Of a stretch of DNA of 44,614 bases, positions 2,411 through 38,230 are shown one piece after another. A program made the position numbers and the translations under genes. The notes under the pieces are model-generated. The model was not told where the DNA came from. It worked only from the letters and a program-made list of their open reading frames with translations, and did no database searches. Source of the stretch: Nemertoderma westbladi (taxonomy: Eukaryota; Animalia; Xenacoelomorpha); the NCBI GenBank assembly GCA_032718475.1, contig JAUCBJ010002972.1:1-44614 (forward strand), written 5' to 3'. Within the stretch, counting starts at the first letter, position 1. The number at the start of each line of letters is the position of its first letter.

Positions 2411-3139
2411 TGTGATGAGCCCCGGACCCTACCCTGTAGCAGCACGAGTTTCATTGTATAACGCGGCCCCACCCAAACATTTAAGATAAACATATTCTGT
2501 TTCCACTAATAATATATACAGATATATTATCCTTGTTGAATAAAGCCGGTAAACTGAAACATAAAGGATAGAAACACATAAATCATTGTTGAGTAAATGC
2601 ATAAAACAGACATACTAATACTGTATATACTATAATTCTAATACTTAGTTTACTTACAAACTATCCTTTGAGACCGCTTATAGTAGCGTGTGAAGACGAC
2701 ATAAGTCCTTACTACGATTGTTTCCCATTATATTCCCATAACGATTAACTAAACAGACCCTATAATGGGCCTTGGTACCGGTAGGTATGTATAGGCTAAA
2801 TTGATTTCCGGTAGACCATAGTCCCTATCTCTACTACATATATGTAGGCCTATCTATAATCGGTCATCGCCTGGTCCCTAAATAAATTTCTTACTTTAAA
2901 TTAATAAAGTACCATTGAGCCACACGTCAATGGTTGAGTCTGTAGGCAGTAGGACTGACAAACCTAAGTATAGTTAGCAATATGGGCAGAACGGTACACC
3001 ACTCCAACCATCTGATGGTGACAAAGGTCAGAATGAGTGATCGTGGTATCGTAATACAGTCTGATCCCTTTGGGTACCGTGTGAAGACGACATATACAAC
3101 ATACATGAACCCCAAGCAGTATATGTTTCATTTATGAAA
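2411..3139 (-). repeat. 3' LTR of element A (lacks 39 bp present at the start of the 5' LTR)
   Basis: 729 bp matching 10090-10818 with 4 substitutions seen by eye. Confidence 0.92.
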
Positions 3140-3147
3140 GTGTCGGA

Positions 3148-6100
3148 TTAACTTTCAGTTTCAACATCACGGTACAGCAGTACCAACTCGTGAATAGGTC
3201 TATTGTAATAAGTTTTCCGAATTTTTTCTTTACCGATTAGTTTCGCAATGACAACATTCACATTACGAACTAAACCATCGTCTCCTTTCTTTATTGCCGT
3301 AATGCGACCAGTGGGCCATGTATTTCGCTTGCAGTTTTTATCTCTGACCAACACAACATCACCGACAGCGAAACAAGGCCTTGGGTTTACCCATTTTGAA
3401 CGCGAATTTAAGAACAATAAATGTCCTGGTCGCCATCGTGACCAGAATTCGTCGATTAGGTACTGGACACGGCGCCATCTCCGTTTACCATAAGCCAGTA
3501 AGTCTCCTTCTGAGAACTCACTGAGTGTTGGTTGACTTGGGTTTTCTTTGAGTGTGAGTAACATCATAGGACTTAGAGGTTGAGGGTCATCTGGGCTAGT
3601 TGAGACTTCCCAAAGTGGGGATGAATTCACAATAGATGCTGCTTCGCATAATAATGTGTGCAATTCGTCTAAATGTAACGACCTTAGCTGGAGTCTCCGC
3701 GATAACAATAGGCCATCTAATATTTTCCTGATTGACCCAATGCGCCGTTCCCAGTGCCCACCAAAGTGCGATGAATGGGGTGGGTTCATTTCCCAAACCA
3801 CCCCAACTGAATCCATTTCTTCTTTTATTTCTTTCAGATTGATATTAATATCTGGGTCAGCCTCCTGGTTGATACAACCTATAAAATTTGAACCCTGATC
3901 ACTTCGAATGCGAGAACATGCACCCCGTATGGATAGAAACCGTGTCAGAGCATTCTTGAATGTTGATGTGTCCATTCCAAGAAGAATTTCAATATGAACA
4001 GCCCCTGAGACTAGGCAAACGCAAATGAGACACCATACCTTTCTCCGTCCTGTGTTACGCCGTGTTGTTTGGCCAGTGGTTATCATCCAAGGTCCAAAAA
4101 CATCAAGTCCAGTTGCAGAAAACGGGGATATTTGGGTGACACGATCTGGTGGTAAGTTACTCATCTGCTGGCTACCCAGTTTTCCTCGCAGATAACGGCA
4201 AATGGTACAGTTCTTGATAACTTCCTTTACCATACGAGAACCACCTTCTACGTACCAACCACCCCCTCTAAGAGCTCCTTGGGTAAGATGACGACCTTGA
4301 TGCGCCACCTTCTGGTGGTGATATCGTATTATCAATATGGTAATAGGGCTGTCCTTTGGTAATATAACGGGGTGGCAATTATCATATGGTAAATCTGCAT
4401 TCTTTAAACGGCCACCAACCAATAAGAGGCCATTGTTTAAGAATGGCGAGAGGGTAGCCAATTTATTCGATTCTGCCAGTGGTTTATTGGCTTTAAGCTT
4501 CTGTAATTCCTCACTGTAATAACACTTTTGAACATCTTTAACCAAGACTATAATTGCCTCTTTTTTACTGGCTTCGAACAAAGATTGCTGTCTTTTACCT
4601 ACAAACTTATTGCAGGCTTCTAGAACTTTAACAACAATCTGAACTACTCTAGTCCACTTTGAAACACGACTGGTAATATTGGTGAACAACCCTGTGTCCA
4701 TGCTATGAAGTCCTTTTAAAACTTTACCAGTATCACCTATTGGTTTTATTTCGGGTAGCTCATCAACTGGTATTGCTTCGTAACTTTGAGCAAATTTATG
4801 AGCCATTGGAGCCGATAAGGTAGCAGGTCCACTGAGCCAATTGGAATTTAACAAGCTTGTCGGTTCTATGGGACGAGTGGCTTTATCTGCTGGATTGTCA
4901 ACTGTTGAAATGTACCCCCACTGTTCTGGGTTACTAAGACTTCTTATAATATTCACTCTTCTGGTAACATACTTAGAGAATCTCCTATAATCATTGTTAA
5001 TATATCCCAGAACTACTCGACTGTCTGAGTAATAGTGAAGTATCTTAGGTTTATTTTTCAATGATTTATAAACTGAAGTAACAGCCATGACTAACTCAAC
5101 TGCTGCACATAATTCTAGGCGTGGTACAGATGATGCTCCATAGGGTGCTACCTTCGAATTGCCATTAACAAATACAACTGATATATCTTCTTTTTCATTC
5201 ACTGATCTCATGTATATGACGTGACCTATAGCAAGTTCTGAGGCATCGGCATAAGAGTGTAAAGTTTGTTCTATTATAAGTCCAAAGTTTCTGGGAATAA
5301 ATCCCCTGGGTATGGATAACTCTGACAGGTCTTTAAGTGTATTTTTCCATTTATTCCACTCTGGAAAGTATTGTTGTGGGAGGGGTGAGTCCCAATCACA
5401 AGCTTCAAGTTCTGGAGTAGAATTCTCTTTCTTAGGAATTACTGTTCTCTGTATTAATCGACCTGTTAGCACCACAGGACTTACAAATCCAATCGGATCA
5501 TATACAGAATTTATTACTGATAATATACCTCTCTTAGTAAAAGGCCTGTCTTCTATCTCAATATTGATAGTAAATGAATCTAAATTAATATTCCATACTA
5601 CTCCTAACGTCCGTGGCAGGACTCCACTTGCATCATTGAATTCATGATGGACATTGTCTGGAGCTATTTCCGAAGAGGGAAATGCATTCAATACGTCTAA
5701 GTCACTAGAGCAAATTTTGTGTAATCGGATATTAAACTTTGCTAACACTTTAATAGCACCTTTGAGTATAATTATAGCCTGATTCGTTGAATTTGCGGTT
5801 CCCAAACCATCGTCAACATAAAAGTTGTCATTTATATATTCACTTACACAATCTATGGGACTTGTTTTCTCATTGTCTGATTTACATTTATTCACTTTAG
5901 AGAGTGGATTGTCTCCATGGTATGATAACTCAATAGTTTTCCGTAATCCAATTGTAGCGATAGGTGGGCTTGGAGAATTTCCAAAAATATGAACTGTACT
6001 TCTATATGCTACAATAGGCTTTGTTGGGTCATTATTTGCAAACCAGAAAAATCTGAGAAAGTCCCTGTCACGGGGTGGAACTTTAAAGCAGTGAAACATT

Positions 6101-8664
6101 GACTCAATGTCTGCCATGAACCCTATTTCACCTTCACGGAATCTATTTAATACTTCTCTTAATTGGTTGTTTTCATCAGGACCTTTCAATAAAGCATTGT
6201 TAAGACTAGTTCCATAATAAGATGCCGAACTGTCAAACACAACTCTAACCTTGTCATTTTTTGGTTGAGTTACAGTGAAAATGGGAATATACCAAACCTT
6301 ACCTGGGATTCCATTTAATTCTTCCAGAGGCACTCTTTCAAATTTTCCAAATTCTATACATTTTCCCATCGACTTGAGGCACTGATTTAATTTATGTTCA
6401 TCCTTTTTTAATTTCAACAATGTATTGTTTGTCCTGCGATAAACGGGAACATAATTATTTGGCAAACAAGGGTCCTCAGATTTAAAAGGTAGTGGAATCT
6501 GGATATTTCCCTCATCATTTATTTCAATGTTTGGCAGAATTCTGTTCTCAAACAGCAAGTCATATGCAGATTTGCTTTCTTCTTCATCATCTTGTAGGCT
6601 TGCAAATACATTACGTTGTATTTCTGAAACACCATTGTCAATTCTCATTGGTAAAGGAGTTGGACTAATGCTAGAGAAGGTGAGAGAGGATGAGAGATGA
6701 TCTGTAGAACAGGTTAGAAGACTCTTGTGTTTTGTTCCAGTCCTTTTATGTCGCTCAGAGCAAGTCTCTCCAACCAGTGCCCACCCAAGAGGGGTTTCAT
6801 GAACAATGGGACCTTGTGTGTTGGTATTGTGGGTCTTTGTCCGCATTAATGTTGGACAATCCCTACCAATCAATAGGAGTGTTTCAGCAGCATAGTCTAT
6901 CCTTGTGAACTTATTAGCAAATTTAGAAATATTTGGTAACATCTCAACTACTGCAGGAGAAGCAACCTCATCTTTTGTGTCTGGTATCCAGACATTCCCA
7001 AATAGAGGAGGAAGTTGATAGATTTCGCTTTCATTAATACCTTTTATTGTAAGGCCTTCAATTATCATACCTTTCATTATCGAATTATGATGACTTAAAG
7101 TTGTCATTGTGTAATCGTGTAATGGACCCTCAATATTCAAATATTCAAATACTTTAGGATCTGCATAAGATGAATGACTTTGTTCATCAACAATAGCGTA
7201 AGTTCGTATAAATTTACTAGAAACATTTGGAGCTTGAACTTCTACTAGAAATGTTTTCCCACAGCTTTTTGACCCGATTCCACAAATCGCAGTACAAAGA
7301 TTATGCTGTGCCTGGTTTGAAGCCTTGTAACCATGTCCAATAGGATCTGAGTCTTTAACTGTTGAGTTATGCTTTGACATTAACTCGTCAGAACCTTTCA
7401 CTGGTTTAATAGGCCGGTGCATAATTGATATATGATTTGTTTTCTTACATACTGAACAATATAATTTTTTCCTGCATTGTGAAGCGTAGTGTCCTCCAAG
7501 ACACTTAAAACATAGCTTATTGCTTCTAGCAAACTCCTTCTTATCATTGTAGCTCAATTCAATGAATTGATGACAATCAATCAAACTGTGACCTTTCTTC
7601 CCATGATACATGCATGAAACTGTTGATTCACTTTCGGTTTTAAAAACCTTCATGTTATTATATTGTTTGTTGTGTTTAGACGTATTCTTTGAGTTATTAG
7701 TCTTTGGTTCAATACTGCAATGATAGCTATCTTTCCTTTCTGAGTCAATGGTTTTGAAGTGTGGACTGCTGCAGTTATATCTAGCTATTTTTGTGATAAA
7801 TTCACAAAAGAATTCAAAAGGTGGATGTACCCCATATTTTTCCTCATAACCACCACCCTTATCAATCCATTTGTGATCTGCCCATTCAGGTAACTTATCA
7901 CGCACACTCCTGAGACCTGTAGAATAATTTAAATCTCCAAGTTCAGAAACATTCTGAATATTAATTTGTATTATGTTGCAGAGGTCTGCTAGATCCTGAA
8001 GTCGAGTTGGTGAGTCCTCTTTTCTAATTGGTTTGAAGCTCAATATCGTTTTTCTAAGACCTTCAGCCAGGCATGGTCCTGAACCAAACCGAACATGTAG
8101 TTCTTCCCATATTCTTCTTAAGGTTAAACTTGGATCTGAACCACTAGCATCCATATAGTTGTTCACAAGTTCAAGGGGTCTCCCACTAACATTAGCTTTG
8201 AGGACTTCAATTTGATCAAGGGGTGACAACTCAATACCTTTCATTTTGTTTTCTAACATTATAAACCAAGACCTGAACCGGTGAGGTTCTCCTTTGAATG
8301 GTTTAGTTGATTTCTGCAATAGCTCTTTCTTTAGTAAGTAATTAGTTGATGTCATATCATTTGATTGGGATAAGCTATAATTATTTGGATGACTATAATT
8401 ATAGTTAGATGAATACAACGGTTGAGCTCTGTTGTGGGGCATAGCATAACTGCCGCTTACTGCAGACTGATTATTTGTTTGAGATTGGGTTGATACCAGG
8501 GGGTCTACTAAATAGCTACCTAGCATTGGGTCTGTTGCAGCTGCTCCATATATACCCCGATTGCTCCCCACTGTAGTTATTACACTGTGTGTGGTAGTTG
8601 GGTTTATAACAGACTGCAGTGTAAAACTTACAACAGGTGGTGAACTAATCGGAAATTGTTGCAT
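3148..8664 (-). CDS. BEL/Pao Gag-Pol polyprotein of element A (main part, 1838 aa)
   Basis: Three Gag Cys/His knuckles (CMYH..HSLIDC, CFKC..H..C, CSVC..H..H); protease AIVDEQS; RT RVVFD / ADIESMF / FGNSPSP / FYVDD; RNase H YADAS and PRLELCAA; integrase HH-CC, GLDVFGP, SDQGSNF, GHWERRI. Domain order and motifs are those of BEL/Pao. Confidence 0.96.
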   Translation of the reverse strand: MQQFPISSPPVVSFTLQSVINPTTTHSVITTVGSNRGIYGAAATDPMLGSYLVDPLVSTQSQTNNQSAVSGSYAMPHNRAQPLYSSNYNYSHPNNYSLSQSNDMTSTNYLLKKELLQKSTKPFKGEPHRFRSWFIMLENKMKGIELSPLDQIEVLKANVSGRPLELVNNYMDASGSDPSLTLRRIWEELHVRFGSGPCLAEGLRKTILSFKPIRKEDSPTRLQDLADLCNIIQINIQNVSELGDLNYSTGLRSVRDKLPEWADHKWIDKGGGYEEKYGVHPPFEFFCEFITKIARYNCSSPHFKTIDSERKDSYHCSIEPKTNNSKNTSKHNKQYNNMKVFKTESESTVSCMYHGKKGHSLIDCHQFIELSYNDKKEFARSNKLCFKCLGGHYASQCRKKLYCSVCKKTNHISIMHRPIKPVKGSDELMSKHNSTVKDSDPIGHGYKASNQAQHNLCTAICGIGSKSCGKTFLVEVQAPNVSSKFIRTYAIVDEQSHSSYADPKVFEYLNIEGPLHDYTMTTLSHHNSIMKGMIIEGLTIKGINESEIYQLPPLFGNVWIPDTKDEVASPAVVEMLPNISKFANKFTRIDYAAETLLLIGRDCPTLMRTKTHNTNTQGPIVHETPLGWALVGETCSERHKRTGTKHKSLLTCSTDHLSSSLTFSSISPTPLPMRIDNGVSEIQRNVFASLQDDEEESKSAYDLLFENRILPNIEINDEGNIQIPLPFKSEDPCLPNNYVPVYRRTNNTLLKLKKDEHKLNQCLKSMGKCIEFGKFERVPLEELNGIPGKVWYIPIFTVTQPKNDKVRVVFDSSASYYGTSLNNALLKGPDENNQLREVLNRFREGEIGFMADIESMFHCFKVPPRDRDFLRFFWFANNDPTKPIVAYRSTVHIFGNSPSPPIATIGLRKTIELSYHGDNPLSKVNKCKSDNEKTSPIDCVSEYINDNFYVDDGLGTANSTNQAIIILKGAIKVLAKFNIRLHKICSSDLDVLNAFPSSEIAPDNVHHEFNDASGVLPRTLGVVWNINLDSFTINIEIEDRPFTKRGILSVINSVYDPIGFVSPVVLTGRLIQRTVIPKKENSTPELEACDWDSPLPQQYFPEWNKWKNTLKDLSELSIPRGFIPRNFGLIIEQTLHSYADASELAIGHVIYMRSVNEKEDISVVFVNGNSKVAPYGASSVPRLELCAAVELVMAVTSVYKSLKNKPKILHYYSDSRVVLGYINNDYRRFSKYVTRRVNIIRSLSNPEQWGYISTVDNPADKATRPIEPTSLLNSNWLSGPATLSAPMAHKFAQSYEAIPVDELPEIKPIGDTGKVLKGLHSMDTGLFTNITSRVSKWTRVVQIVVKVLEACNKFVGKRQQSLFEASKKEAIIVLVKDVQKCYYSEELQKLKANKPLAESNKLATLSPFLNNGLLLVGGRLKNADLPYDNCHPVILPKDSPITILIIRYHHQKVAHQGRHLTQGALRGGGWYVEGGSRMVKEVIKNCTICRYLRGKLGSQQMSNLPPDRVTQISPFSATGLDVFGPWMITTGQTTRRNTGRRKVWCLICVCLVSGAVHIEILLGMDTSTFKNALTRFLSIRGACSRIRSDQGSNFIGCINQEADPDININLKEIKEEMDSVGVVWEMNPPHSSHFGGHWERRIGSIRKILDGLLLSRRLQLRSLHLDELHTLLCEAASIVNSSPLWEVSTSPDDPQPLSPMMLLTLKENPSQPTLSEFSEGDLLAYGKRRWRRVQYLIDEFWSRWRPGHLLFLNSRSKWVNPRPCFAVGDVVLVRDKNCKRNTWPTGRITAIKKGDDGLVRNVNVVIAKLIGKEKIRKTYYNRPIHELVLLYRDVETES

Positions 8665-8706
8665 GAAATGGTAGCTAGGGCTACTGTCTGAAACATAGAC
8701 CCCTGG

Positions 8707-9327
8707 TTACCCATTTGTATTTATTTGTTCGTTCTGTATTGAGTCGACATTAATGGATCTCAATTCCTTATCAACAATTATACTGTTGGATTCAACATAG
8801 TCTCTCACTTTAGACATAGTATCAACAACATGTAGGGAGTCTAGTTTATTTGTTATACATGTTTCTTTATCTGGATACCATTCAAGGAATGAAACTCCTT
8901 CGATTTGCTGCTCATTTTCGACTACCCTTTCACTCTGTTCAGTTTGTGAATGAAGGTCGAATGTGATACTTGAATTGGCACCTAAATCTTTTCTGTGCTG
9001 GGATAACTCTTTCATTATCTCAAGATAAACTGCACATTGAGTTTGATAATCCTCAGTAAATTGAGATTTTTCTTGCATTGCACCATCATTGCTTAAGCGT
9101 GCTATTAAATCACAGAAGGATTTACTGAATGCCCGTTTTTTAATTTTCAGATCACTGATATGATTATTTACCTCATCTAATGTGCACAATAATGATAGTT
9201 GGATGTTCAACAAATTTTCCAATGTAGATTTTGTTGCATCATAATTATCAATAAGAACTAACCTTGGCAGAAATGCTTTTCTTTGTGGTCTTAATGCTCC
9301 TGTTGGAGTATTACCTTTTTCAGCCAT
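8707..9327 (-). CDS. N-terminal Gag segment of element A, in frame with 3148-8664 and separated from it by one TAA
   Basis: Same frame; the 14 codons between the stop and 8664 are open (PGVYVSDSSPSYHF). Likely start is MAEKG at 9327; the upstream ATG at 9498 lies inside the tandem array. Confidence 0.75.
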   Translation of the reverse strand: MAEKGNTPTGALRPQRKAFLPRLVLIDNYDATKSTLENLLNIQLSLLCTLDEVNNHISDLKIKKRAFSKSFCDLIARLSNDGAMQEKSQFTEDYQTQCAVYLEIMKELSQHRKDLGANSSITFDLHSQTEQSERVVENEQQIEGVSFLEWYPDKETCITNKLDSLHVVDTMSKVRDYVESNSIIVDKELRSINVDSIQNEQINTNG

Positions 9328-9371
9328 TATAGAGTTATTTGTTCTTCTTAATCGAACCAAATATAAACAGA

Positions 9372-9991
9372 ACCTCGAACTGAATATTATATATCGGTAT
9401 TTCGAGAACACGTTGGGGGAGTTACCTCGAACCGAATATGACGCCGAAATTTCGAGAACCCGTTGGGGGGGATTACCTCGAACCGAATATGACGCCAAAA
9501 TTTCGAGAACCCGTTGGGGGGATTACCTCGAACCGAATATGGCGCAGAAATTTCGAGAACCCGTTGGAGGGATTACCTCGAACCGAATATGACGCCTGAA
9601 TTTCGAGAACCCGTTGGAGGGATTACCTCGAACCGAATATGACGCCGGAATTTCGAGAACCCGTTGGAGGGATTACCTCGAACCGAATTTGACGCCGAAA
9701 TTTCGAGAACCCATTGGGGGGAATTACCTCGAACCGAATAGATGCCGAAAATTTCGAGAACCCGTTGGGGGGGATTACCTCGAACCGAATATGACGCCGA
9801 AATTTCGAGAACCCATTGGGGGGGATTACCTCGGACCGAATATGACGCCAAAATTTCGAGAACCCGTTGGGGGGATTACCTCGAACCGAATATGATGCCG
9901 AAATTTCGAGAACCCGTTGGGGGGATTACCTCGAACCGAATATGACGCCGGAATTTCGAGAACCCGTTGGGGGGATTACCTCGAACCGAAT
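9372..9991. repeat. 50-51-bp tandem array (~12 copies) in the 5' leader of element A
   Basis: Unit ACCTCGAACCGAATATGACGCCGAAATTTCGAGAACCCGTTGGGGGGATT repeated head to tail, with variable G-run length. Confidence 0.96.
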
Positions 9992-10089
9992 GCTTTGCAT
10001 CTTTGTTGGTGAAATTACTGGTAGTAGACGCTGAAGGGACTATATAGTGAGTAGTTATCTACTGCTCTTGCAGTAGGATAGTTTTTTAC

Positions 10090-10857
10090 TGTGATGAGCC
10101 CCGGACCCTACCCTGTAGCAGCACGAGTTTCATTGTATAACGCAGCCCCACCCAAACATTTAAGATAAACATATTCTGTTTCCACTAATAATATATACAG
10201 ATATATTATCCTTGTTGAATAAAGCCGGTAAACTGAAACATAAAGGATAGAAACACATAAATCATTGTTGAGTAAATGCATAAAACAGACATACTAATAC
10301 TGTATATACTATAATTCTAATACTTAGTTTACTTACAAACTATCCTTTGAGACCGCTTATAGTAGCGTGTGAAGACGACATAAGTCCTTACTACGATTGT
10401 TTCCCATTATATTCCCATAACGATTAACTAAACAGACCCTATAATGGGCCTTGGTACCGGTAGGTATGTATAGGCTAAATTGATTTCCGGTAGACCATAG
10501 TCCCTATCTCTACTACATATATGTAGGCCTATCTATAATCGGTCATCGCCTGGTCCCTAAATGAATTTCTTACTTTAAATTAATAAAGTACCATTGATCC
10601 ACACGTCAATGGTTGAGTCTGTAGGCAGTAGGACTGACAAACCTAAGTATAGTTAGCAATATGGGCAGAACGGTACACCACTCCAACCATCTGATGGTGA
10701 CAAAGGTCAGAATGAGTGATCGTGGTATCGTAATACAGTCTGATCCCTTTGGGTACCGTGTGAAGACGACATATACAACATACACGAACCCCAAGCAGTA
10801 TATGTTTCATTTATGAAATAACGTACTGTATATGAGGGGCTCTATATTTCCAAAACA
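10090..10857 (-). repeat. 5' LTR of element A
   Basis: Matches 2411-3139 up to 10818, then extends to ...AAAACA at 10857, which is followed by the TSD GTTTG. Confidence 0.88.
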
Positions 10858-11631
10858 GTTTGTGTTTCCCTTTAGGGGAAACTTATTGTAACTTGTCTTT
10901 ATGTCTAATTATATTGATATCGCTACAGTATTCAATTTGTGACAACTCTCAATCGTGATGTAATTAATAATAAGGGCTTTGCTTAGAACGACTTATCACT
11001 GCTTATCACTGATACTTAATTGTAGTGACCCACCTTTTCTGGCGCGTTTAAAACTTCCTTGATTTCGTAATATCGGCATTATATTAAACAAACAAAGAGA
11101 GTAAATTGAGTTTAACGACAGAATATCAATTAATAATAATATTATAATGTCACCAAGACACAGACATTAACGGCAAAGGCATATAACATAAAGACATAAA
11201 GGCATGTAATAAACGCTGGTCATCAGTAATCTGACCAGCATCCTGCATTGGAGGTAACTCCTCTGCGATATTTTAATGTGCTGAGTGGCTAAAATGATCA
11301 ACCAGCAGAGATTATATATCAGGTTTACTCAAGGCAATAATATGGGCCAATAAGATGTCACGAATCTCAGTAAGGCATCCTATCAATTCGAATATGGGTA
11401 TAATGGTACTAGATGGCGTAAAAACCCTTACCAGAAAATAATTCATTAGGAATAATTAATAATACACAGTAACTGGTTTTTTATCAATAAAAAATGTAGT
11501 TTTGGACCAAAATTGTTAAAATAAGTAATTTAAAAGCAGAATTCATGAATGCAGCAACACCGCTTCCATTCATTTAGCTACCAGGGTGTTAAAATTAAGG
11601 CAAAAGTTCAAAATCGTACATAGAAGAAGGT

Positions 11632-13876
11632 CTAGTAAGTAAACAGTTCAATTAACAATATCAAACTAGAATTATATGGGACATATGTAACCAACATATA
11701 AAAAAAATCCGGTGTCCATAAGCTATCGAGGGATCCAATGGAGCCTCGGGCGATAACTACCGATTTGTAGCTTTGGACATTCTCTACGACGGATTTTCCT
11801 TTCAACGTGGTAGAGAGTTTATCTTCCCGGAATCGTACGTCGATGTTCCAGTAAATCAATCGATCACTAATGAAATTTACGAGATTCTGAGGGGGTGTGG
11901 GTTTATCCTCGATAGTTTGTATGTTAAAGGGTTTGCAAAAGGCATTCAGTTTGATTATGTGATCTACATGTTTCTGCAGGGGTTCGATTTGCATGACATC
12001 GAGGGGATTAAGTAAGGGTAGAAAATCCATACTGCAGGCGGGATCCTCGGGTTTCATCACATAATGTTGACCGAGTAGAACGAAATCCGGATGGTCCTGA
12101 ATTCCATAGAACAGTGGATGGAGAGGACGTCTTTCCAGATTTTTATCCCAGATTAGTGACTTGATTTGGTCAGTTCGACCAAGGGGAGTGATAATCCACT
12201 CATCTGTTTCGTCGAGAAGGGGCTCTACAATGTGGGTTTCCAGCATCGGAGCATCTGCGACTAGGTTGTGGTTAGAGATGTCAGTGTCAAAAGGTATCGT
12301 TCAGGTTTGACTGTAAGCGACACCGAAAAGCTTTACAGACCCGGACGGGTGAGCCTGCGCTTTACCTTGGAACCCTTCCATAAGAGTCTGGACCGCGGGT
12401 TGGACTAAAGAAGCTAGCTCATGCTCGTCGTTTAAACATTCATGCTCTGTCTGTTCCTCTTCTTCACGAAGACATTGGCTTTCTCTCAGAGCGTCCGCGA
12501 GGGAGATAGCCTTTCCTCGTTCGATTTCCTCTTGCAGGAGGCGGACTTCGGATTCGAATTCCGGTAGTCTCATCCAACGGAAGACATCAAGCTTGCCGGA
12601 GAGTTTAAAAGGGTAATCTATGCCGATAGAGTTTCGAAGGGAGTTTAGAAACTCGGTAACCACCAGGTAGTTGCAATTGACCTTGGAGGTGCCGGCGAAG
12701 GTGAGAAGGGAAGTCCACATGGATTTTTCATGCTGCAGCAGACTGCGCGACCGATGCCAACCATAAAGGGTTGAAGAGGGGTCGGTTCTTCCTCTTGGTA
12801 ATGGGGAGCTATCTGTTCCTCCATGATGAGGTCTCGGAAATACATGTACATGGCTTCGGAGAAGCGGGGTTCGGTTGGAGATAATGTCATGGGTTTCACC
12901 ATAGGCAACATTGGGCCGGGGGAAAACTCAGCGATGCTGATCATAGGTTTACGCACCCTCTGCAAGTTACGTAACCATTTCTCATCGACATTAAATCAAT
13001 TCTCCTCAAACCCACTGTACGTATACTTGACGAAGCTATGGTGAGGGCATCGTCGATGGGGGTGATTCGCAGGTGTAGTGGAGACCTGTTGGTTGGGATG
13101 TGGGCATTGACAGCACAAGTACCAGAGCCGGAAGTCAGTTTTGCTCGGGGGTGTAGACATTACACCTGACTTACTGTATTCCTCCATGTCGTAGAAGGCA
13201 TCAGGGAGGACAGGGAGCGGGCGACCCTCAGTAAGGTACATCATGGTGTGATAGAGTTGTTTGATCTCCTTAGCCAGGTTAGAATGATTTGGTTGGGGTA
13301 CAGAGTTTGTAAATCCTGTTAACTTGCGACCTTTATATACGTTTCGCGGAGAAAGGTAACATAGTCCTCGAAGCGGGAGAGATGAGAAGGATTCTCGGTG
13401 TCATCATCCGCGATGCCAACACTGATCTGATAGTCGTGTTGTGTTCGAGTCTCGTTTCTACGTTGCCGTTCAACGTATAGTTTGAACATCTTCTTGTCCC
13501 ATTTGACATGCTGGTCATCAACGTCCCGTAAGTCCATGGGGTGACCAGTGGTGAGGAAGCTGTTATAACTTCCGTCGCGCTCGGTATATTTGAGAATGAA
13601 CTCACAATATTGTTGTTCGATGCTGCGCTTTTCGGGGTTCATCAGCGGTTCGATGTAGTTCCCCGAAGGATCCATACGCAGTTCCATGCTTTGAGCGAGC
13701 TTGGTGGATTCGCCGGGGTAATCAGCCATCATTGTATCCATCATATCCATGTGTTGTTCCCAAGAACGTTGCTTGACGCAGGGGAGTGTCTTCGTATATC
13801 GAGACATGTGCGAGTTTGAGTAGAATAATGTGTATAGGGGGTGGCGAGTGTTACCTCCCCATAGGCGCCGAGACAC
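11632..13876 (-). pseudogene. Disrupted accessory gene of element B (originally about 740 codons, putative Zn-binding CxxC-CxxH protein)
   Basis: ORFs 13319-13876, 12996-13244 + 12645-12965 (same frame, one TGA between) and 12301-12720 + 11632-12246 (same frame, one TGA between) tile the region; peptide blocks match ORF 35142-35750. Confidence 0.72.
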
Positions 13877-14854
13877 ACCGCGACGCAGTCCCTGGTCAAT
13901 CCCTTATGGCGAGAATCGAGTTAGCAACTACCAGCGGTACCGAAATATTGTGGCTATATGCTAAACTCTCATCAAGCCAGGGAGACGGGGGACTGGCCCG
14001 GAGCCATCACTGATCTACTACGACTATAGCATCTATGAAGGGTTGGACAATTGCGTGTACCTTAAAATTTCACACTATTTGTCGGTATTTCACACTATTT
14101 AGCTTAATTTGGTGCTTATTTGTGCACTTTTGTTCAACATACGGTCAAAATACAGTTCAAAAATGCTTAACTTAAAACATTTACCAGAATGTCACCGTTT
14201 TGTGTATCCATGATAACAATATTACCTTTCCCATACAAGCTGTGCTAAGCGGTTGCATTCACAGTTATACGAGTTCTATCTATGTTTCCTTGGAAACACG
14301 TTGTTTTGTTGTTATTTAATTAATTATTCCGTGACATGTTGTTAAATTGAGATTAGAATGCTCACCTCTCACACTTATTTTACACTAGTAACTACTGTAA
14401 TTATTATTTTGGCATTTATGGTGATATTAAATTTCATTGTGGTTATTAATTTGTGTTTAATGATTTATGTTTAATATAAAATTTTGAAATTTTTTTTTGA
14501 AAATCGCATATTTCTATGCCCGTAACATTGCACAAATCCGCTTCCACGATTGAGTATTGTCGTTAGTAATTAGTAATTTATTTTGAATTATTTAAGTTTT
14601 AAGTCAAATAATTTACTGTTAAATTAAATTGTCGCATATGTAGCTATCATATACAACGCACAATTCACATAAGTAGGTTTTGTTGCTACAGTGCACTTGT
14701 AGTCTAATACTAATACTTATGCTTTACTAAATGGCTAATAAATAATTACACACTCAATCGTGACCTTTTATAAGACATTACTCCAGTTTGTATGTCAGAC
14801 TGCTTGGTCTAACCATCTGTTGCGCGTAGTTACCGGAACGTTCCCTTGCCAATT

Positions 14855-17800
14855 CTAGTAAACAAAGGCGTCCAATTGGTCGATTGAAATCGTCCAATTG
14901 GTCGGTTTGGGTCTAGCTCTCCAAATAGCCAGTTCAACTGAGCGTACCAAGTCATCGTTACCCATATGAACTTCTGTTATACGGCCCGTTTCCCAGTTCT
15001 TTCTAGGTTGGTCCTGATCCACTAAGAGTACTATATAGCCAACTGATACATCTTCCTTCTTGGAAAACCATAGTATCTTTCGAAATGTGTAGTGAATCGC
15101 CGAGATATTAGTTGTATCATTTGCCAAGTACGTCTCAACAGCTCATCACCATCCTGTGGATCAGATTTAGGCAGCATAGTTGCTGGTTTTCTTAGTAGGA
15201 AATGGGACAGTGTGAGGGGTTCCATAGCTTGTGGATTCGATGAAATAGGTAAGTGGGGTGTATCATTCAAGTAGCTTGATATCTCCTCCAAAAGAGTTCT
15301 AAGTAGTTCGTCAGTTAAATAAGCCTTACATGGGATAATGTGATGGAACGCGACCTTTGTACTTTTAATCAACCGTTCCCAACTTCCGCCCCACCCAGGC
15401 GCGTTGGTGGCATTGAAAGTCCATGTGGATGCCGACACTTTAAGGTGTTCTTCGAGCTGGTGGTCGTTCCAATCGGCAATGAATTTGGTGATTTCTTTAT
15501 TGGTGCCTACAAAATTCGTCCCCTGATCGGACCTCATAGTCCGGCTAGTTCCAAATCTACTGATCTGTCTCCAGAGACAAAGGATAAAACTTTTCATCAA
15601 CATGTCATTAACCATATCCAGGTAGACGGCTCGAAAAGTCATGCAAACGAAGATGACGCACCATCGTCTCACTATCGAGCGGGCACGCTTAACTTCAAAG
15701 GGCCCGAAGTGATCCACGCCAGTGTGGGTGAATTGGGGCTGATAACAATCAACTCTTTCTCTCGGAAGCGCCGCTTCCAGTTGCGTCATCGGCTTACTAT
15801 AAATCCTTTTGCAAGGTATACAGTTTCGTAGTATTTGGTTGAGAGCCGCACAGGGGTGTACAAGATAATAACGCGTTCTGATCTCGCTAAATATGTGTTC
15901 TCTCCCGGCGTGATAGAGTTGGTAATGAACGTCCTGTATCAACTTGGTAATGAACATCCTGTATCAACTTGTTCTGAATCTCGGGGTCGAATATTAATAT
16001 GGGGAACATAGTATCTCTGGAGATCGGAGCGTTAGTGAGGCAGCCTCCAACTCGAATTAACCCATTTATCATAGTACTTGAGAATTTGTCTGCCAATAGA
16101 GTTAAGGGATCGACGCTGAGCTGATTGTATTTCTCAGGTTTCTCAAGTCTTTGTGAAATTCTCAATAATTGTAAGTTGGATTTATCCACTTCATTAGGTG
16201 TTAAGCCTATCACAGGTTCGCTATTAATACTGTACCTGTAGTGGAAAAGTTGTTTTAGTATAGTTATAGCCCTACATATCTTATCCCACAAGCTATAATG
16301 GTTCATGGCTCGGGCTATCAGTGGGGATAGACCAATATCCACGTTGGGTAAGTCTGACTGACCTGTGGATATTTTGGGGTTGTCTGTGATAGCTTCAGCC
16401 CTGGATTTAATACTTAGGGAAGGGTCTGAATTTTGACTGTCTATTTTGTTTATATGATTGTTGGTTGCTATGTCGATGGGCTTGAATAGCTTAGACTTAG
16501 ATGGCCTGGTTTTCGGTTTAATGATTTTCAGACCCTTACTTAACCTGTCTCATTTCCTCGGGAGTAATATGAGCAGGCCATTGGTCCTCTGGTTGGGAAA
16601 GGAAATCGGGTCCATTCAACCAACACTTAGAATTTAGCAGGTCGTTAGGGGTTGCACCACGGGAAGGTATGTCCGCAGGGTTTTGAGGTCCGGGGATGTA
16701 CCTCCATTGTTCTAATTTAGTGCGGTTGAGTATTATAGATACTCGGTTTGTGATGTACACACTAAAACCGCAAACGGTATTAGTTAAGTATTCCAGCACT
16801 ATGGCTGCGTCCGTCCATAAAACTGTCCTTGAAATTACAAAGTCGGTCTTGTCCATTATATTTTTGGCAACAATCGTCGCGAACAATGAGGCCTTCAGTT
16901 CGGCTCTCTGGACAGTCAAGTCCTTACTTTTAATCAAAGATTTGGATGCAACGAGGGACACCCGAGTGTTTTGGGGCGTTGTAGCCCTATAGTAAGCTAT
17001 AATGCCAATGCCCTTGTCACTTGCGTCGCCAAATACATGTAATTGGTACGTGTGTGATGGTAGAGCGTGGGGAAAGTAAGCTCTGAGCACCCGAAAGTTT
17101 TCAATATCAGGTAAGGCATTTTCCCACCTGGACCAGTTCATCAATAACTCTCCTGCCAGGGGTTCATCCCAAGTAAGATTCTGGTCCCACATGGTTTTTA
17201 CTATCTGCCTAGCTTCTAGAATTACAGGACTTATAAAGCCTATAGGGTCGAACAGTGTACTTGATATGTATACGAAATACAAATATGCTTAATACGTAGA
17301 CCTGGAGGTCTAACCTGGACCTTGAAGAACATTTTGTTCAGTTGCGTATCCCATCTGAGGGTTTTTGTTGCCAGTAAGTCGTCTTTGCTGAGATCTAAGT
17401 CGTGGCTGCCCATTTCCGTCTCGGGAACGGTAGACAGGAATTCCCGGGAGTTGCTGGTAAACTTGGTTAAGCGGAAGCCACCTTTCTTCAAGCAATCGAC
17501 TGTTCCCTTCGTAATGGTCACGGCTTCTTGTACGGTAGGGACAGAATGTAAGTTGTCGTCCATATAAATATTTCATTTAATATTGTTAATGACTGCAGAC
17601 TCATATAGGTGTTTATTGTCGTCTGCCATGCGGGAAACAATATGGCAGGCGTTTGAAGGGCTGGATATTAGCCCGAAGACTTGTATGGTCATCCAGTACT
17701 CTTCGGGTGGCTTGCTAACATCTCCTTCAGGCCACCAGAGGAAACGCAGACTATCCTGATCATCCTGAGTGACTTTAACCTGCAGGAACATACCTTCGAT

Positions 17801-20420
17801 ATCTGAGGCAAAGGCCACATCGAATTGCCGTAATCGAATAAATATCCCTGGAAGTGAACGCAATAAGTTAGGGCCGGCCATTAGTCGAGAGTTCAACGAT
17901 TGACTTTTATACAAGATTGATCCGTCGAAAACCACTCGGACTTTGTCTGGTTTATCAGGCCGTATTAGGTAATGGTGAATTATGTAATAAGTTTGATCAG
18001 TGTGGGGAGTATCAGGTGGCACCTCTGTAGCGTATCCTTCACTAATAGTCTTGGTCATTTGTTCATTGTACATCCTATATGCGTTAGGATCACCAGTTAA
18101 ATGTCTCTTGAGTTTACTAAGACATTTCTCAGCCAGGACGCGGTTATTCATCAACTTCACCAATTTGGAGCGCCGCAGTAATCCTGTTTCGTATCTACCT
18201 TCGTCGGGGATATAGCGAGTGTTGGTAGTTTGGATTTGTATAACTTGCTCTTCCTCAATAGATAGGGCACGATCATGGGAATTTTCTTCCATCTTTTGTT
18301 GGTCTACCCAGTTGGTTATTTTCTCAGTCAAAGTGGCATCAGCAATAGATTTGCGTAATAAAATATCCCTGTCTTCTTTGGTGTCTGAATAACAATCTGT
18401 TAATGGGTCACTCCTGTTAGCAAACGATGGGTGTATTCTCCATATTCTAACATGGTGGTTGCGTCATCCGTGTTGAAATGAGAGGTTGGTAGGTCATTAT
18501 CGCTGGAGTCATTCGACCTGTAGTCGTAAATTTTTGAAATTTTTTGAGCCAAAATCGGATCCTCCCTCCGCGTATTCCTCCACTTCCATAATCCTGTTAG
18601 GTCTGTGTGAATGGATGTAATTGATGGACAGATTTTCGAAATGAATGTTATTCATCGAAATATTGTCGCTTACTTTTCTTTCGTTTAAGGTCTTTATGGA
18701 TGGACCGGTGCAGCACCATCCTATTCTGGTTCTACCAGCGTAAGTTGTCAATGGTGGAGGAGAACCAGGGAATTTCTCTAGAATTTCCATGGCTTCCGGC
18801 GTGTTCTGGCCGATAAGCAGTTGAACTCCTTGTCGATCGAGTGGGTATCTCGGTATGTTATTGTGTTTTACAAAGTCATCACTATCCCAATCATACATAG
18901 GGGCTTGACTTTCCGCAAAGTTCTTTATAGCGACCATCTTGATATTATCCAGCTTGCATACCTCATTGGTATCTCCTGGGTCGGACAGTGAGACCTTGTA
19001 ATAACGTGTTTGTATGACCGATTGCCACATTTGCATCACGCCAGAATGGTTTGGATTCATAGGATGTCCGTCATTCTCATCAAATAGTTCGTCTGCAAGA
19101 TTTTGGTCAATAGAAGATCCCAAACTTCCGGTATCCAGTAAGGCGTTTACTATGATGCTGCAGTTATTGTAATGCAGTCGGACTTGTAAGATGGGGAATT
19201 CTCGAACACCAAGTGATTTTGGGTTTGAAGTTCGCTGAGATATTTGGTCATCTGATGTCTGTTCGGGAGTAGTCGGTGACTCATACGTGATGGCTTCATA
19301 TACCATTACGTTGTTGCAACTCTCCTTGTCAGTGGAAAATTCATCTGCATCAAATTCTTGTTCAGAACAAACCGATGTGTCATAGGATGAATGATCAGTG
19401 AACTGAACTTTTGCTTCCATCTGTGGGACCATGTCTTTCTGATGCAATAGATAGTGATGGTTACCATTACATTTAACTCATTTATAAGTGTCCTTTAAAT
19501 AGCATTTGCTTCTACTGTGTCCGGGACATAAGCACAGGAAACATACTCTTAGCGTGTTAACTGTCACTCTTCATTTCTCGAGTGAAAATTTGATGAATTC
19601 CGGACACTGCGATAATCTATGGGACTCTTTATTACATAGCAAACAGCCAGCGTAGGATACTGATTTGATAATCGGTTTGAGAGTTTTCACTTCAGAATGT
19701 TGGGTCTGTTGAGTTTATACAGTTCGGACCGGGGTACGGTCACGTACTTCCCTCAGATTCTTATTCACATGTGGATAAATCTGTTTGATAGACTCGTTCA
19801 CGATGTTTGGTTGGGGGATTTTTGTCGAGTTTTGGGTCTACATTGCGCTCACGATGTTGAGTAATCATAAGTAATGAGGATTCATAATCGAGATATTCCA
19901 AGAAGTCCTTCATACCTAGTTTTGCATTCAGTACGTTACGGTCCCATCGTGTGGATACACTACCTGTGGGCAGGGCTGCAGAAATCATTCCAACAACGAC
20001 CGGAGTGTCATAATATTCATGTTGGTCCAACCAATCTAGTTGTCTACAGATTTCTTTAATCTTGTCCACAAATTCAATCATCTCCGTAGTTATCACACGT
20101 TTACGATTGACCAACTTTCGATACAGATATTGGGCTATTGAAGCTTCATCTCCGTACCTGACGTGTAATAGTTTCCATAGTTCTTCCAATCCCTGTGGGT
20201 ATCCGATATATCTTTGCGCTAATTTTTTCGAATAACTTTCCAAACAATCTATTAGGAAGCGTAGTTTCTCACTATTGGGCAATGGTGAACTAAATATACT
20301 ATCTTTTACATATTCTTTAAATGGAAGCCATTTTAACTCATTCCCATCAAATTTAATAATTTCACCTACTTTAACTGCCTGACGCGCTTCAGTACGCGCT
20401 AATTGGCGGGTGTAAAAGCC
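14855..20420 (-). pseudogene. Fragmented BEL/Pao gag-pol of element B
   Basis: Gag SEKLRFL; protease ALLDTGS; RT KVRVVFD / SDIEGMFLQ / YMDD; RNase H VFGDAS, NPAD; integrase GVDHFGP, SDQGTNF, GSWERL. Many stops and frameshifts, including a 25-bp duplication at 15921-15970. Confidence 0.93.
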
Positions 20421-21716
20421 TTTGCTGAATTGCCCCGTTATTTTTATTATCTTTTACATTGAAATACTCTGTAGTTGGTTTAATAGGTGTAAGAGACCGT
20501 ATTATTGCTATATCGGTGTTTTTTAGAGGATCTAAGAGCTATTTCCTCCGTATGTGTACTGTGAAAGGCATAGTTGATGATTCTATGGCAATTCCGTGAC
20601 GCAAAAGGTGATAGCTACTCTTGAACAGTAGTTACTATGACGACGGTTAACAGCTGATATTCATACGTGTTGATTTTCTTTGTTCTACGGCGTCTCTCAG
20701 TTCAGTCAGCCAATCAGAGCATTTTTATGGCTCTTGTACAGAAATTTCCTAGAAATCACTCAATGCTTTATGTGCAGTGTTTACATTCAGTCCTGAGCCA
20801 GGAGAGAGCGGCTTGGAAATATTTTGTGCTTTTCTGTTTTAGCCTAACACTAGTAGGCTTAATTATAAGGACATATATCCGTTATCTGCTAAACATAACT
20901 CAACTTAACAAACCATAACTGACTGATGATCTGCATGTACCACATACCTGTGCATACGTTTATATTGTTATACTGCTATTTACTGTCGGTTCTTCATAAT
21001 ATGGTTGATGAATTATTATATTTGGAATAACGATAAATAACCCCGAAAACCCAATATTCTTGATATACCGAAGGTAAGAGAGAAAGGTTACATATAACGA
21101 TTGTGACTTATGTTAAAGTGGTTTGAAGTGAATCTAATGTTATTTGATAGACCCTACATGAGTCGGTCCGTGTTACTTTTATATGTGGCTAAAATCAGTG
21201 AAGATCGGCAGATCAGTGTGCAGTATTGTGCAGCATTGTGTATGAGTGAGTCTGATAACGAAGCATTTCCTAAAGAATGCGCCATATATGTGAATTATAA
21301 CTAAGCCATATCGTTGTGAGTAGTTTAAGTCATAACTCTGTTTATATAGATAGAGCGCCACGTCCTAAAGGAACTGTTAATATTCCCCGAAGGTGAATAA
21401 TATTGTCAGAGATTATATAATACTGTCAGTCGAATAATACATTAAGCTTACATAGCAATAAGATTAAGCCGTCGAACCCAATCTCCCGGGTATATCCAGC
21501 GGGTGAATGATCGCGCACAGATTGGTTTCGACTAGTGTAGTGAATTAAATACTTGTCATAGGCTAAAAGTGATTTATTATCTAGAAGACATCCTAATTTG
21601 GCGGGTTAAACTGCCAAAGGTCTGAAAGCGCGAACAATAACGGATATTGCTTCTTTATTGCAGTAAGCAATAAAGTTGAAAGTACCGGTCAACTGGTAAA
21701 CCGGAACGGTACATCT

Positions 21717-23800: not shown

Positions 23801-23889
23801 AATTAATTACTAGGCTAGCAGTTAATACTGAGTTACTAGACTTGCTCAGACTGTAATGCAGCAGTAGACATTCAACTGTACACATAAAC

Positions 23890-26800
23890 ATGTCTGATAC
23901 TAAGCAGAACCTGTCAGACAGTTTATTAGATGTAACTATCTGCGACTCAGATAGAGGCGTAGAACCGTCTAGTCGTAAGTTCAGTTCACCTCCCACTGTG
24001 AGGAAGGTCATCCCTCCTGTAGTAATAACAGAACCTAGGCTGGTCCAACATCGTAGGTCTATCATAGGCACTCGAGCTCAGGTCAAGTGGGACCAAGAAG
24101 CAGCAGAACAGCAACAACCCGCGAGCCAAGAACTTACTTCTCAACGGCCCAACAGCTCCAGTAGTGAGGATACTGTAGAACTGACACCAGAACGCGGAGC
24201 AAAGATGATGGATGCGGTTTATTCGGATCCCCTTCTCATCCTTCCTGCAGCCGTACTCACTAGGTTATTGATTGCAGTGGAAGAACACCAGATCGATTGG
24301 GCGAGAAGTCAACGATCAACTAAAGATAATTATGCGGGATACACGAGTGAAGAACTGAAGTCTATTGTCGAGTCGCAATGGAACTTCCCCGGACCCAGAC
24401 TCCCGTTTGATTTATCAGAAGCTGCCTGGGAAGACATACACCGGATGGGAGTAGCCAAAGAAACCATAGATCCCGCTGTGTGGAAGAGGTCCGCAGCCGG
24501 ATACGCACAGGGATTCTTCAGCTCTATGGAGCGAGTAAAAGGACAACTGTTTCAACAACCACAAGGACCTCAAGAGCAGGGACAACTGCTTTATCAAGTT
24601 AGAGAAAGAATTCTACGAATCAGGCTAATATTATCGGCCTTTGAGGAGGCTTCTAAACGAAGGCAAGACACGTCGTTGCAAGTTGCCGTAAAGACTTGGT
24701 TTCAAAGGGTGAGTCTCCAGGTTCAAGGAACAGCTCAGTGGAAAGCTCAGCTGGAGGAGCGCTCAACCCATGGAGAATCAACAGACGCTACTTTTTCCCA
24801 AGTGGAAAGTGAAGCGACGGTAGAGAAACCGCATAAGAGGGATGCCATTGACATCTATCTGTCAGACTATCAACGTTTTTTAGGTGATGACGAGTTGAGG
24901 AGAAGGTTAGAGGGACTTAGCCCTAATAGTGAAGGAACCAAGCTTGTGTTGGATGCCATCGATGTGGAAATGAGGGCTGCGAATCAGGCTAAATTTGATG
25001 AACAACTCCGCCTGACACGAGTCCAAGAAGAACAAGTAAAGAAAAAACGTATAGAAGACAGAAAGAAAGCAGCAGTAGCAGCTGCCGAAGCGGAAAGGAA
25101 AGCAGCCGAAGAGGAAAGTAAAGCAGCCGAGATGGAAAGAAAAGCGGCAGCGACAGCAGCAGAAGCAAAGGCGGCAGCGGCAGAGGCAAAAGCGGCAGTG
25201 ACAGCGGCAGAGGCAGAAGCGAAAAGAAAAGCAGCCGAAATGAAAAGAAAAGCGGAAATGGCAGTGGCAGAAGCAGAACGTAGAGCGGCGGAAGAAATCA
25301 CCCAATTAGAATTGGAAAACATTCAGGAGAATCAAGACTGCATAAATAAACAGTTAACAGCTAGTAATATGCAGATGATGAATCGATCTACTCCCAAAAG
25401 ACAGGGATATACATCATCTGAGGAAGGCGATACCACCGATACTGAAGGCAAAGGAAATAGATCTCGTCTAAGCAGACGTAAAAGAACATTCCACCGTCAG
25501 AAATTGCCTGATTTGCCTCCAGCTGTTAGAAGGCAACTAAATAACACCAACTTAGGTAGTACAGAACCCACAGACCAAACAATTAAAATAGAAAGACTCC
25601 CTACGATAGTAGATGAGCCTGAAATAATTAGGCCTGTTCTTGAAATCACCCCTTCGGTGATAGACACACCTGTGCTCCCTGAAACTACCTCTAAATTCCC
25701 TCTGCATAGCACTAAGCTACCTGTGCCCCGTAGAACTGCCCAGGAGACAGTTCAGGTCCTGGACCCTGAGCGAAATATTCATGATTTGTCGCCCGTTGTC
25801 CCTCGTCCGCCCGCTACAACGTTGGCGACTCCCGCTTCGGCGGTCGAATGGGTGGACGAGAGACGACGGGGGATGGATCTCCTGCTCGGACAGATGCAGG
25901 AGACTGTTCAACAATTCAAAGGCACAGTAAGGGAAAGTAGGCTAGAGTTGCAAGAAGTGCAGCAAAGTATCGCGCTAGAACGCGATAAATTAGTAAATAC
26001 ACAAAAGGGTATACCACCACCCTCTGTAACAATGTGTCAACCTGTTAGGTCTGAAGTATCTCATGCGCAAGGTGTGGAGCCTACACGCATATGTACTGCT
26101 AGCGAAGTAGAAACTCCTATAGTGAACCCTATTAAGGGTAATTATAGACCTGTTGATAATGATATTCCCTATAGAACTGATCATAATCCGAGAAATTTAT
26201 ATACCGATAACTCGATATTAAATAACACGATGGCCCAAGAAAGTTTTACGCGTCAAATGGCTAGAACCGAAGCCCGGCAAGCGGTAAAGGTGGGAGAGAT
26301 CATCAAGTTCAATGGAGATGAGATGAAATGGTTACCTTTTAATGAATATTACAAAGATAACATACAGAACTCTGTACTATCTAATGGAGAAAAACTTAGA
26401 TACCTCATCGAGTGCTTGGAAGGATCTCCCAAGTTAATGGCGTTAAAGTTTATTGGACATCCAGACGGATTAAGACAAGTTTGGGATACACTAAACATCA
26501 GGTATGGTAATAGGAATAACATCGCTGGGTATTTGTATGCAAAGTTGGTAGCGCCCCGAAAGTTTATTAGCAGCGGGATTATCGAGTTTTCCGATGAGAT
26601 CCAGGAGATCTGCAGACAATTAGATTGGCTAGGTAAGTCTCATGAGTATCAGAACACTATGGTTATTAGAGCAGTGGCTTCTACTTTACCGAAAGGTGGA
26701 GTAGGTACACGCTGGGATAAGAAAGTGTTATATATGATGGAACAACAACGACGAAACCCTACCATGGCTGATCTCATGTCATTCCTAGATGGAGAAGTGA

Positions 26801-34264: not shown

Positions 34265-35024
34265 TGTTGGACGCAACTCACTTCGTATGCATTCCTCGTA
34301 TGCAAATACTAGGAAATGCATAGGAGCGGGGTTGTGGTGATTTGCGTTGAGTTTTGTCTAGTGGGTATCAAAACAAAATTTTATTTTCAAAATTTTTGGA
34401 AAATTTAAAATTTTAAAAAATTAGAAGTGAACCCAAGACAATTCCAGACGCTGTGTATAGACGCGTTTTAGAATTCGTCTATAGACATACAGTAATTTGA
34501 AAAGTCGTGAAGCCTGGAAAATAGCATTTAGAAACCATGGTGACGGCTATATTACGTAGGAGTGTAAATTGAGTTTAGCAACTTCCACAGATTGGTGCCA
34601 ACAGTGCAACTAAGGTGCTAAAGGTTAGTAGCACCAGAGGCGTACATGGACCCCACTCAGTAGTTTGCAGGATGTGTGATGTTCGATTATCAAACCTGTG
34701 GGTTTGGTATAGTCGAGTATTGTGGCTATGGTCCTTTCTAACTACTGTAGTTTAGTACGAGTAATGGGAGTAGTTTGGGCATCAAAAAGTGAGTTGGTCA
34801 CGGCCAGTTTATCTCCAAAGTTTTTGCGCTATGCATGGGAATAGGTTAGAGGATAGTTAGTTAGGAAGAGACGGGATCTAGAGAGTCGAACCTGAACTGC
34901 TGGAAGGCGGGGGGGGGGGTTCGGGAGGTCTGTCCTTCAGCGACATCTAACTGATTACCCACAGTGTAATTGGTTTGCGTAACGGAACACTTATTGGGAT
35001 ATATATGTATATACGCGGGGCATA

Positions 35025-36258
35025 ATGGAGAGGGATATTAGAGCGCAACCGCGCAGAGGATTTACTGCCAGAGAGGAGGCGGAGCTACCATTCGCGTGAC
35101 CGGGATGTAAAGATTCGAACGTTTACTACCATGGGCGGTCCGTGATGGAGCTGAACGGAAAGTACAAACCAAGTTATGATAAAGAATTACGGAGAGAAAG
35201 AATGAGAGCGTTGGGGGACCGGATGGAAGTTTTGCGGAGAGAGTATCGCACGCGGTATCCCTACGACTTCGCTTTGGACGTGTGTGACATTAGCGCAGAT
35301 CCGGACGAGGAAATCGCACGACTATACCATATGAATATGTATTTACGACATGAGGAGCCTCTACCTGCAGTCCGAGACCAGTTCGACGGAATGCATCTGT
35401 ATCGGAGGACTCGAGGCGAGGATCAGGAGACGCCGAAAGTCTTCAGCGTGTACAAGCTGTTCTACAAGTGTGGTGAATGCATGAATAAACAAGACGTGGC
35501 GATTCCCGACCGATTAGACGAGCAACATCCGGAACCGATATTAACGCGATGTCCAGCTCACCAATTCCTTAGATACAACGAGGGAGGTTACCCGATGAGC
35601 AACCCGATGATCAGTATCGACTTCAGCGGAAAGCGACCTCCGAGACCCATTACGCCGACCGTTACGACATTAGATCCGTATACGGAGATTAAACCCTGTT
35701 CGACACGGCATAGACACGGCGGCGGCCATTTCGCTATACCGAGCCTATAAGGACCTAGAGGCGCGGCGCGAAGCGGCACGGGACTCGAGTTCCTGGACCA
35801 CGTTTACTTCGCTTCACCAGGAGAGGAAGCTCACGCCTGAGTATCCAGACGAGATTCGTGCCATCCATCCGTCTACTAACTATACCCACGATCCGCGATT
35901 TATACGATATTTACTCCAAATTATTTCGGGAAGTTTCGACGAACGCATTATTAAGCCCGAATATGTCCAATCCTTTATATATCATCGTCGCTCTGATATA
36001 TACGTCTAGAATTATTACCCAGCGCACAATTGGCGGCCTAAGGAGACTCGTTTGGGGTCATTGACCTCTGAACGAGTGGAGGATCAGGACCGCCGCGCCC
36101 ACAGCGACAACAGCCGGAGCTCACAGCTCGCGGCAAGTACCAGAGGGAGGAGCCCAGAAGGACGAAAGCGAGACTGGTGTATCTGGAGAAGGGAGCGAGC
36201 CCGAGAGACCCAGGAGCTAGCCGATGAGACTATAATATCACGGAGCGACAAACTCTAG
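35025..36258 (+). pseudogene. Accessory gene of element C (core ORF 35142-35750, probably frameshifted on both sides), homologous to the accessory gene of B
   Basis: LYHMNMYL..PLP, LFYKCGEC, RCPAHQFLRY and NPMISI align with peptides from 12645-13280 on the minus strand; an adjacent frame stays open from ~35715 to ~36009. Confidence 0.72.
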
Positions 36259-38211: not shown

Positions 38212-38230
38212 ACGGCACAATATTGCCTGC

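Follow-up and report, generated by a model that had tools for sequence, protein, structure and literature searches.

The ICTV profile of the Belpaoviridae, the family of BEL/Pao retrotransposons, gives gag, pol and env as their only genes (PMC8742986). The env-like genes described in the reports cited here include the F-type gene of roo, gB/chuvirus-like genes of mosquito elements and, in nematodes, those of Tas, Cer7 and Atlas (Gn-Gc) (PMC8742986, PMC13524379, PMC554778, PMC9094657). Non-Env third genes are already known from Ty3/gypsy and plant elements. In LTR elements of bdelloid rotifers, such ORF3s are reported to encode a DEDDy exonuclease, a GDSL esterase, coiled-coil or TM proteins, and are described as separate units (PMC5408684). 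Extra ORFs between pol and the 3' LTR are reported in plants, as gene23 of Grande and in RIRE2 and Retand (PMC7264820), and as an AlkB gene in orchid elements (PMC9289625). Additionally, the Arabidopsis VANDAL transposons are reported to encode VANC, an accessory protein that lifts the silencing of its own family (PMC6719617).

Here we describe a third gene present in two BEL/Pao elements of Nemertoderma westbladi, called B and C. It occupies the slot of env, behind pol, ahead of the 3' LTR and on the sense strand, as reported for the env-like genes of the Belpaoviridae, but it differs from them in having one compact C-x2-C...C-x2-H cluster and no convincing membrane anchor, glycoprotein character or sequence match to them. 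As a family-specific non-Env gene behind pol in animal LTR elements it resembles the bdelloid ORF3s; those, however, have been described in the Juno, Vesta, TelKA and Mag clades and are clearly homologous to cellular genes (PMC5408684), whereas the gene described here belongs to BEL/Pao and matched nothing. With the plant ORFs, described as mostly orphan and proposed to be regulatory, it shares conservation across copies (PMC7264820, PMC9289625); these differ in their hosts and in being often antisense, and the likeness is one of description. The likeness to VANC would be a functional analogy alone, that of an accessory protein serving its own element family, since VANC belongs to a plant DNA transposon and has a demonstrated activity whereas the present gene is known from sequence (PMC6719617). 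No non-Env third gene of a BEL/Pao element was found in the literature searched, although unannotated ones may exist in supplements and repeat databases. Genes of this kind are known, and this family in the BEL/Pao superfamily appears to be new.

Three BEL/Pao elements in one window

The window, by which we mean the whole stretch of 44,614 nt analysed, is the forward strand of contig JAUCBJ010002972.1 (assembly GCA_032718475.1). It is repeat-dense, with nested elements and with tandem arrays at 1063-1792, 40493-41900 and 43084-44614 (units of 22, 36 and 46 nt), and contains three BEL/Pao retrotransposons, A and B on the minus strand and C on the plus strand (Table 1). Both B and C encode DUF1759, Peptidase_A17 and Integrase_H2C2 domains, and C also DUF5641, in the order expected for BEL/Pao pol (protease, reverse transcriptase, RNase H, integrase). 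The best database relatives of the C pol were 35-41% identical to it and shared its Pfam domains, the named ones being mostly from marine invertebrates. B and C were 46% identical in gag, 44% in the protease region, 39% in reverse transcriptase plus RNase H and 37% in integrase, and either of them was less similar to A (28-34%) than they were to each other (37-46%). When the integrases were placed in a tree together with those of 80 outside loci, B paired with C at a support of 0.505, which weakly suggests a B plus C clade.

Element A is a recent insertion, as its LTRs are 99.5% alike and it holds an open frame of 1852 codons. One stop precedes this frame, and a 50-nt tandem array lies in the 5' leader. 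Its pol stop is 9 nt from the LTR, and A serves as an internal control that has no third gene. Element B is truncated near 11003 and its 3' LTR is absent from the window. In C, the LTR-like stretch at 36748-39604 contains an internal tandem duplication of 1365 nt (copies 89% alike), and no second LTR partner for it was found within the window. The first frame of C matches the gag-protease region of B at residues 1096-1427 (main match) and again, at 24%, at residues 1763-2091, with a short stretch resembling the start of a reverse transcriptase (1514-1557) between the two gag-protease-like modules; this doubled module is likely a chimera or an internal duplication that remained open. Furthermore, all four AAAATTTT octamers of the window fall in the spacers between pol and the third gene, one in B (14478) and three in C (34375, 34389 and 34407). 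They resemble the central termination sequence of lentiviruses with its A/T-tracts, and they could alternatively be a promoter feature.

Table 1. Coordinates of the BEL/Pao elements of the window and of the pieces of the third gene.
Feature	Position	Strand	Remarks
Element A	2411..10818	-	BEL/Pao, more distant; LTRs of 729 nt; no third gene
B gag and protease pieces (broken)	18509..20453	-	DUF1759; 44-46% to C ORF1
B reverse transcriptase and RNase H pieces (broken)	16536..18463	-	Peptidase_A17, E 1.5e-34; 39% to C pol
B integrase and pol end (broken)	14855..15963	-	Integrase_H2C2, rve; 37% to C integrase
B spacer, pol end to third gene	13808..14854	-	A/T-tract near 14478
B third gene, piece 1	13319..13903	-	N-terminal flank, homologous to that of C; first ATG at 13807
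B third gene, piece 2 (conserved core)	12996..13400	-	LYHxxMYL...PLP and C-x2-C-x18-C-x2-H
B piece 2 motif codons	Cys 13113-13115, 13104-13106, 13047-13049; His 13038-13040	-	
B third gene, piece 3	12645..12995	-	Frame of piece 2; PMISI motif; marginal match to C
B piece 4	12301..12927	-	After frame change near 12750; no counterpart in C
B piece 5	11632..12300	-	Frame of piece 4, past in-frame stop 12301-12303; no counterpart in C
B 3' tail	11003..11631	-	Loose ends at 10985 and 11003
C gag-protease frame	23857..30453	+	2198 codons; DUF1759, Asp_protease_2; second gag-protease-like module
C pol (reverse transcriptase, RNase H, integrase), open	30434..34264	+	Peptidase_A17, Integrase_H2C2, DUF5641
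C spacer	34265..35024	+	A/T-tracts at 34375-34414
C third gene, N-terminal remnant	about 35025..35145	+	RDVKIRTFTTMGGP; frame differs from core
C third gene, core piece	35100..35750	+	C-x2-C-x23-C-x2-H
C core motif codons	Cys 35469-35471, 35478-35480, 35550-35552; His 35559-35561	+	
C third gene, C-terminal remnant	35674..36009	+	After frame change
C purine-rich tract, then LTR-like stretch TGT...ACA	36727..39604	+	Tract 36727-36744; putative LTR

Layout and homology of the third gene

A preliminary description of this DNA had placed the gene about 1 kb after the integrase in sense orientation, and in both elements it does lie 0.8-1 kb beyond the end of pol; the first ATG of B is 1048 nt from the pol stop, and the distance in C is 760-880 nt. 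All the peptides quoted there were found where it had put them in B and C, and the motif spacings that it gave for the two elements are exact. Both copies are broken: the gene of B consists of five pieces, with two frame changes and two in-frame stops, and no intact copy was seen, none of the contigs listed from other copies spanning the stretch. A simple pattern search revealed no splice signal common to B and C (one acceptor-like site in B, 0 in C).

The core pieces of B and C aligned with a Smith-Waterman score of 129, which none of 1000 shuffles reached (mean 31.5, maximum 56), and tblastn gave an E value of 1e-11. The weaker flanking matches were not significant when taken piece by piece (36, 138 and 46 of 1000 shuffles reached them). 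When the pieces of a flank were joined with an X at each break, with the junctions for these read-through alignments picked by eye, the N-terminal flank scored 51 (0/1000 shuffles) and the C-terminal flank 44, a marginal result (19/1000). The observation made in the preliminary description is confirmed. Next to the Cys/His set, the alignment also contains conserved His, Asp, Tyr and Arg residues. On these alignments the third genes of B and C are homologous.

The homology extends over residues 50-335 of B and 6-264 of C, so the length of about 740 codons given in the preliminary description for the fragments of B applies to B only (725 codons from the first ATG, or 748 from the end point used in that description), the counterpart in C ending at about residue 335 of the 725. 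Accordingly, the distal part of B (about 375 codons) scored at chance level against C (371/1000 shuffles), and piece 5 may be a separate reading frame or a second gene. At the end of the C gene, a 27-nt piece (35975-36002) recurs about 285 nt further on (36261-36288, 25/27 alike), which may point to a local duplication or deletion at the place where the C gene ends short of that of B.

Codon-level conservation and other copies of element B

Over 94 aligned core codons, identity between B and C was 0.59, 0.54 and 0.29 at the first, second and third codon position, and at the 34 identical residues third positions agreed at 0.26, i.e. at chance. The core proteins are 32-36% identical, near the 37-39% of Pol. 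Because the first two positions are kept and the third is saturated, the protein has been held at about the identity of Pol while its silent sites turned over fully.

The family of element B has many diverged copies, as 933, 1026 and 876 contigs from three DNA runs of two studies fell on 10800-15200, most of them 80-99% alike. The core variants examined among these copies were those in the 40 rows listed of 100, of which 33 were classed and 7 near a break were dropped. In the frame of the gene 15/33 of these listed variants were synonymous, against 28% expected (p 0.024), compared with 9/33 and 8/33 when they were read in the other two frames. Among listed sites at which the B copies are split, defined by a cut-off of 0.55 chosen after inspecting the variant table, the proportion was 13/23 (p 0.004), and where the window's B copy departs from most others it was 2/10, as expected of a decaying copy. 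Pieces 4-5 had 9 synonymous changes among the 17 variants listed, with about 30% expected. In the 40 rows listed, the four codons of the C-x2-C...C-x2-H set showed one synonymous variant and 0 amino-acid changes; at four other Cys/His codons nearby, by contrast, the amino acid does vary among the B copies. The in-frame stop at 12996-12998, with which piece 2 ends, is absent from most other copies, another letter in this codon making up 87-93% of the summed depth. In some other copies internal deletions run across the third gene (11966-12788, 13088-13928 and 13616-13946), and deleted derivatives thus exist in the B family.

The interpretation in the preliminary description is supported in part. 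It had proposed a lineage-specific accessory gene of BEL/Pao elements, retained under selection and with a shared Cys/His motif, and these points agree with the results: among the contigs of other B copies, some run from the gene into the spacer and some from the spacer into the pol end, no third gene of this kind was found beside 80 other BEL/Pao integrase loci (20 of the 80 extend 1500 nt past the integrase; 0 are close relatives), third positions are saturated while first and second ones are kept, the variants of the B copies lean synonymous, and the four motif codons are free of amino-acid change in the rows listed. We are confident that the third gene is a real element gene kept by purifying selection. 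Furthermore, none of the three outcomes named beforehand as speaking against the proposal (an alignment at the level of shuffles, a match to a known Env or other family, or homologues unlinked to BEL/Pao pol) was observed.

Possible functions of the third gene

The family had been called unrecognised, and it matched nothing in the libraries searched: no credible homologue was found among 1.84 billion representative proteins or, for any piece, in Pfam, PHROGs, NCBIfam or PDB sequences, and word-based protein searches, the ESM Atlas and viral and metagenome contigs were blank. Two matches among the representatives were rejected as summed FAZ1 repeats. These blanks most likely reflect a poorly sampled lineage rather than proving a new fold, and structure models built from one or two sequences were unusable (pLDDT 35.5 and 29.8). 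Among known domains with a similar cluster, the THAP domain (C2CH) has the spacing C-x2-4-C-x35-53-C-x2-H and was rejected, the spacing here being 18 in B and 23 in C and Pfam giving no match. In LIM or other zinc fingers with a treble-clef fold, a second finger of the form C-x2-C-x16-21-C-x2-H is preceded by a first one; the spacing of B (18) fits this and that of C (23) does not, and neither a first finger nor a Pfam match was found.

The non-Env character that had been proposed also held. In a simple hydropathy scan of the broken copies, the best 19-residue window of six of the seven pieces scored between -0.02 and 0.90, and that of B piece 5, at its moderately hydrophobic terminus, scored 1.52. 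None reached 1.6, and the scan revealed no convincing signal peptide or C-terminal membrane anchor. Sequons for N-glycosylation number 0-1 per piece, cysteines are few beyond the one cluster, and no fusion glycoprotein family or structure was matched in Pfam or PDB sequences. With no convincing membrane segment and few sequons, the third gene is not an Env of the types described for BEL/Pao, and a decayed env or other membrane-spread gene is highly improbable, despite the position of the gene, the hydrophobic end of piece 5 and the fact that env is the sole third gene listed for the Belpaoviridae (PMC8742986). A separate mobile element or captured fragment riding in both B and C, rather than a BEL/Pao gene, is also very unlikely. 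The lack of a homologue beside the 80 other integrases would suit such a fragment, and free-standing copies elsewhere in the genome are possible; against it, the gene has the same position and strand relative to pol in two related elements with saturated silent sites, contigs of other B copies join gene, spacer and pol end, and no transposase or reverse transcriptase family was matched.

Two other readings are compatible with a genuine element gene. A captured enzyme (nuclease, demethylase or hydrolase) that diverged past recognition, in which the Cys/His cluster would bind a structural or catalytic metal, has reported precedents in the DEDDy and GDSL third genes of bdelloids (PMC5408684) and the AlkB of orchid elements (PMC9289625), and both the His, Asp, Tyr and Arg residues beside the cluster and the length of the B gene would fit. 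Those precedents are, however, recognisable by profile search, whereas no piece here matched a DEDDy exonuclease or GDSL esterase profile in Pfam or NCBIfam, or anything else credible, and we consider an enzyme unlikely. A little less unlikely is a factor that would bind Gag, integrase or a chromatin protein of the host by means of its zinc module, and would thereby help to assemble particles, enter the nucleus or choose integration sites. A predicted soluble protein that is not strongly basic would suit this role, as would its occurrence together with a gag well conserved between B and C and the location of the elements in a repeat-dense window of nested elements. Targeting domains of LTR elements are usually fused to integrase, and the separation of the third gene from integrase speaks against it.

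The reading that we favour, although tentatively, is that the third gene is a non-Env gene of one BEL/Pao sub-lineage whose product would be a soluble zinc-binding helper that keeps the element expressed against silencing. The gene would have been present already in the ancestor that B and C share and, given its distance from the pol stop, would have an RNA of its own, made by splicing or by internal initiation. Its protein would contain a conserved module of about 290 residues in which C-x2-C...C-x2-H probably holds one zinc ion, and a C-terminal part that may be variable or separate. Kept as tightly as Pol and having no membrane or enzyme features, it most plausibly serves the element in trans. 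By analogy, the protein may act on the DNA or RNA of its own element, sustaining expression against host silencing, and a nucleic-acid- or chromatin-directed regulator that counters silencing is a possibility we put somewhat short of even; none of the pieces matched a DNA- or RNA-binding family, and none is strongly basic. The further step, in which a new zinc-binding family in the env slot would serve an animal BEL/Pao lineage as its own factor against silencing (anti-piRNA or anti-chromatin), much like VANC or a retroviral accessory protein, and would make these elements complex retroelements with a regulator of a new fold, is improbable on the present evidence.

Lastly, an orphan non-Env third gene under selection widens the cargo known for BEL/Pao elements and offers a concrete candidate for an accessory factor of an animal retrotransposon. 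If it is merely another orphan extra ORF, it would be a modest addition to a known pattern. The transposon-encoded anti-silencing proteins named in a review are from plants (PMC6719617); if the third gene does encode such a protein in an animal, the resistance of elements to host silencing would be opened to direct test.
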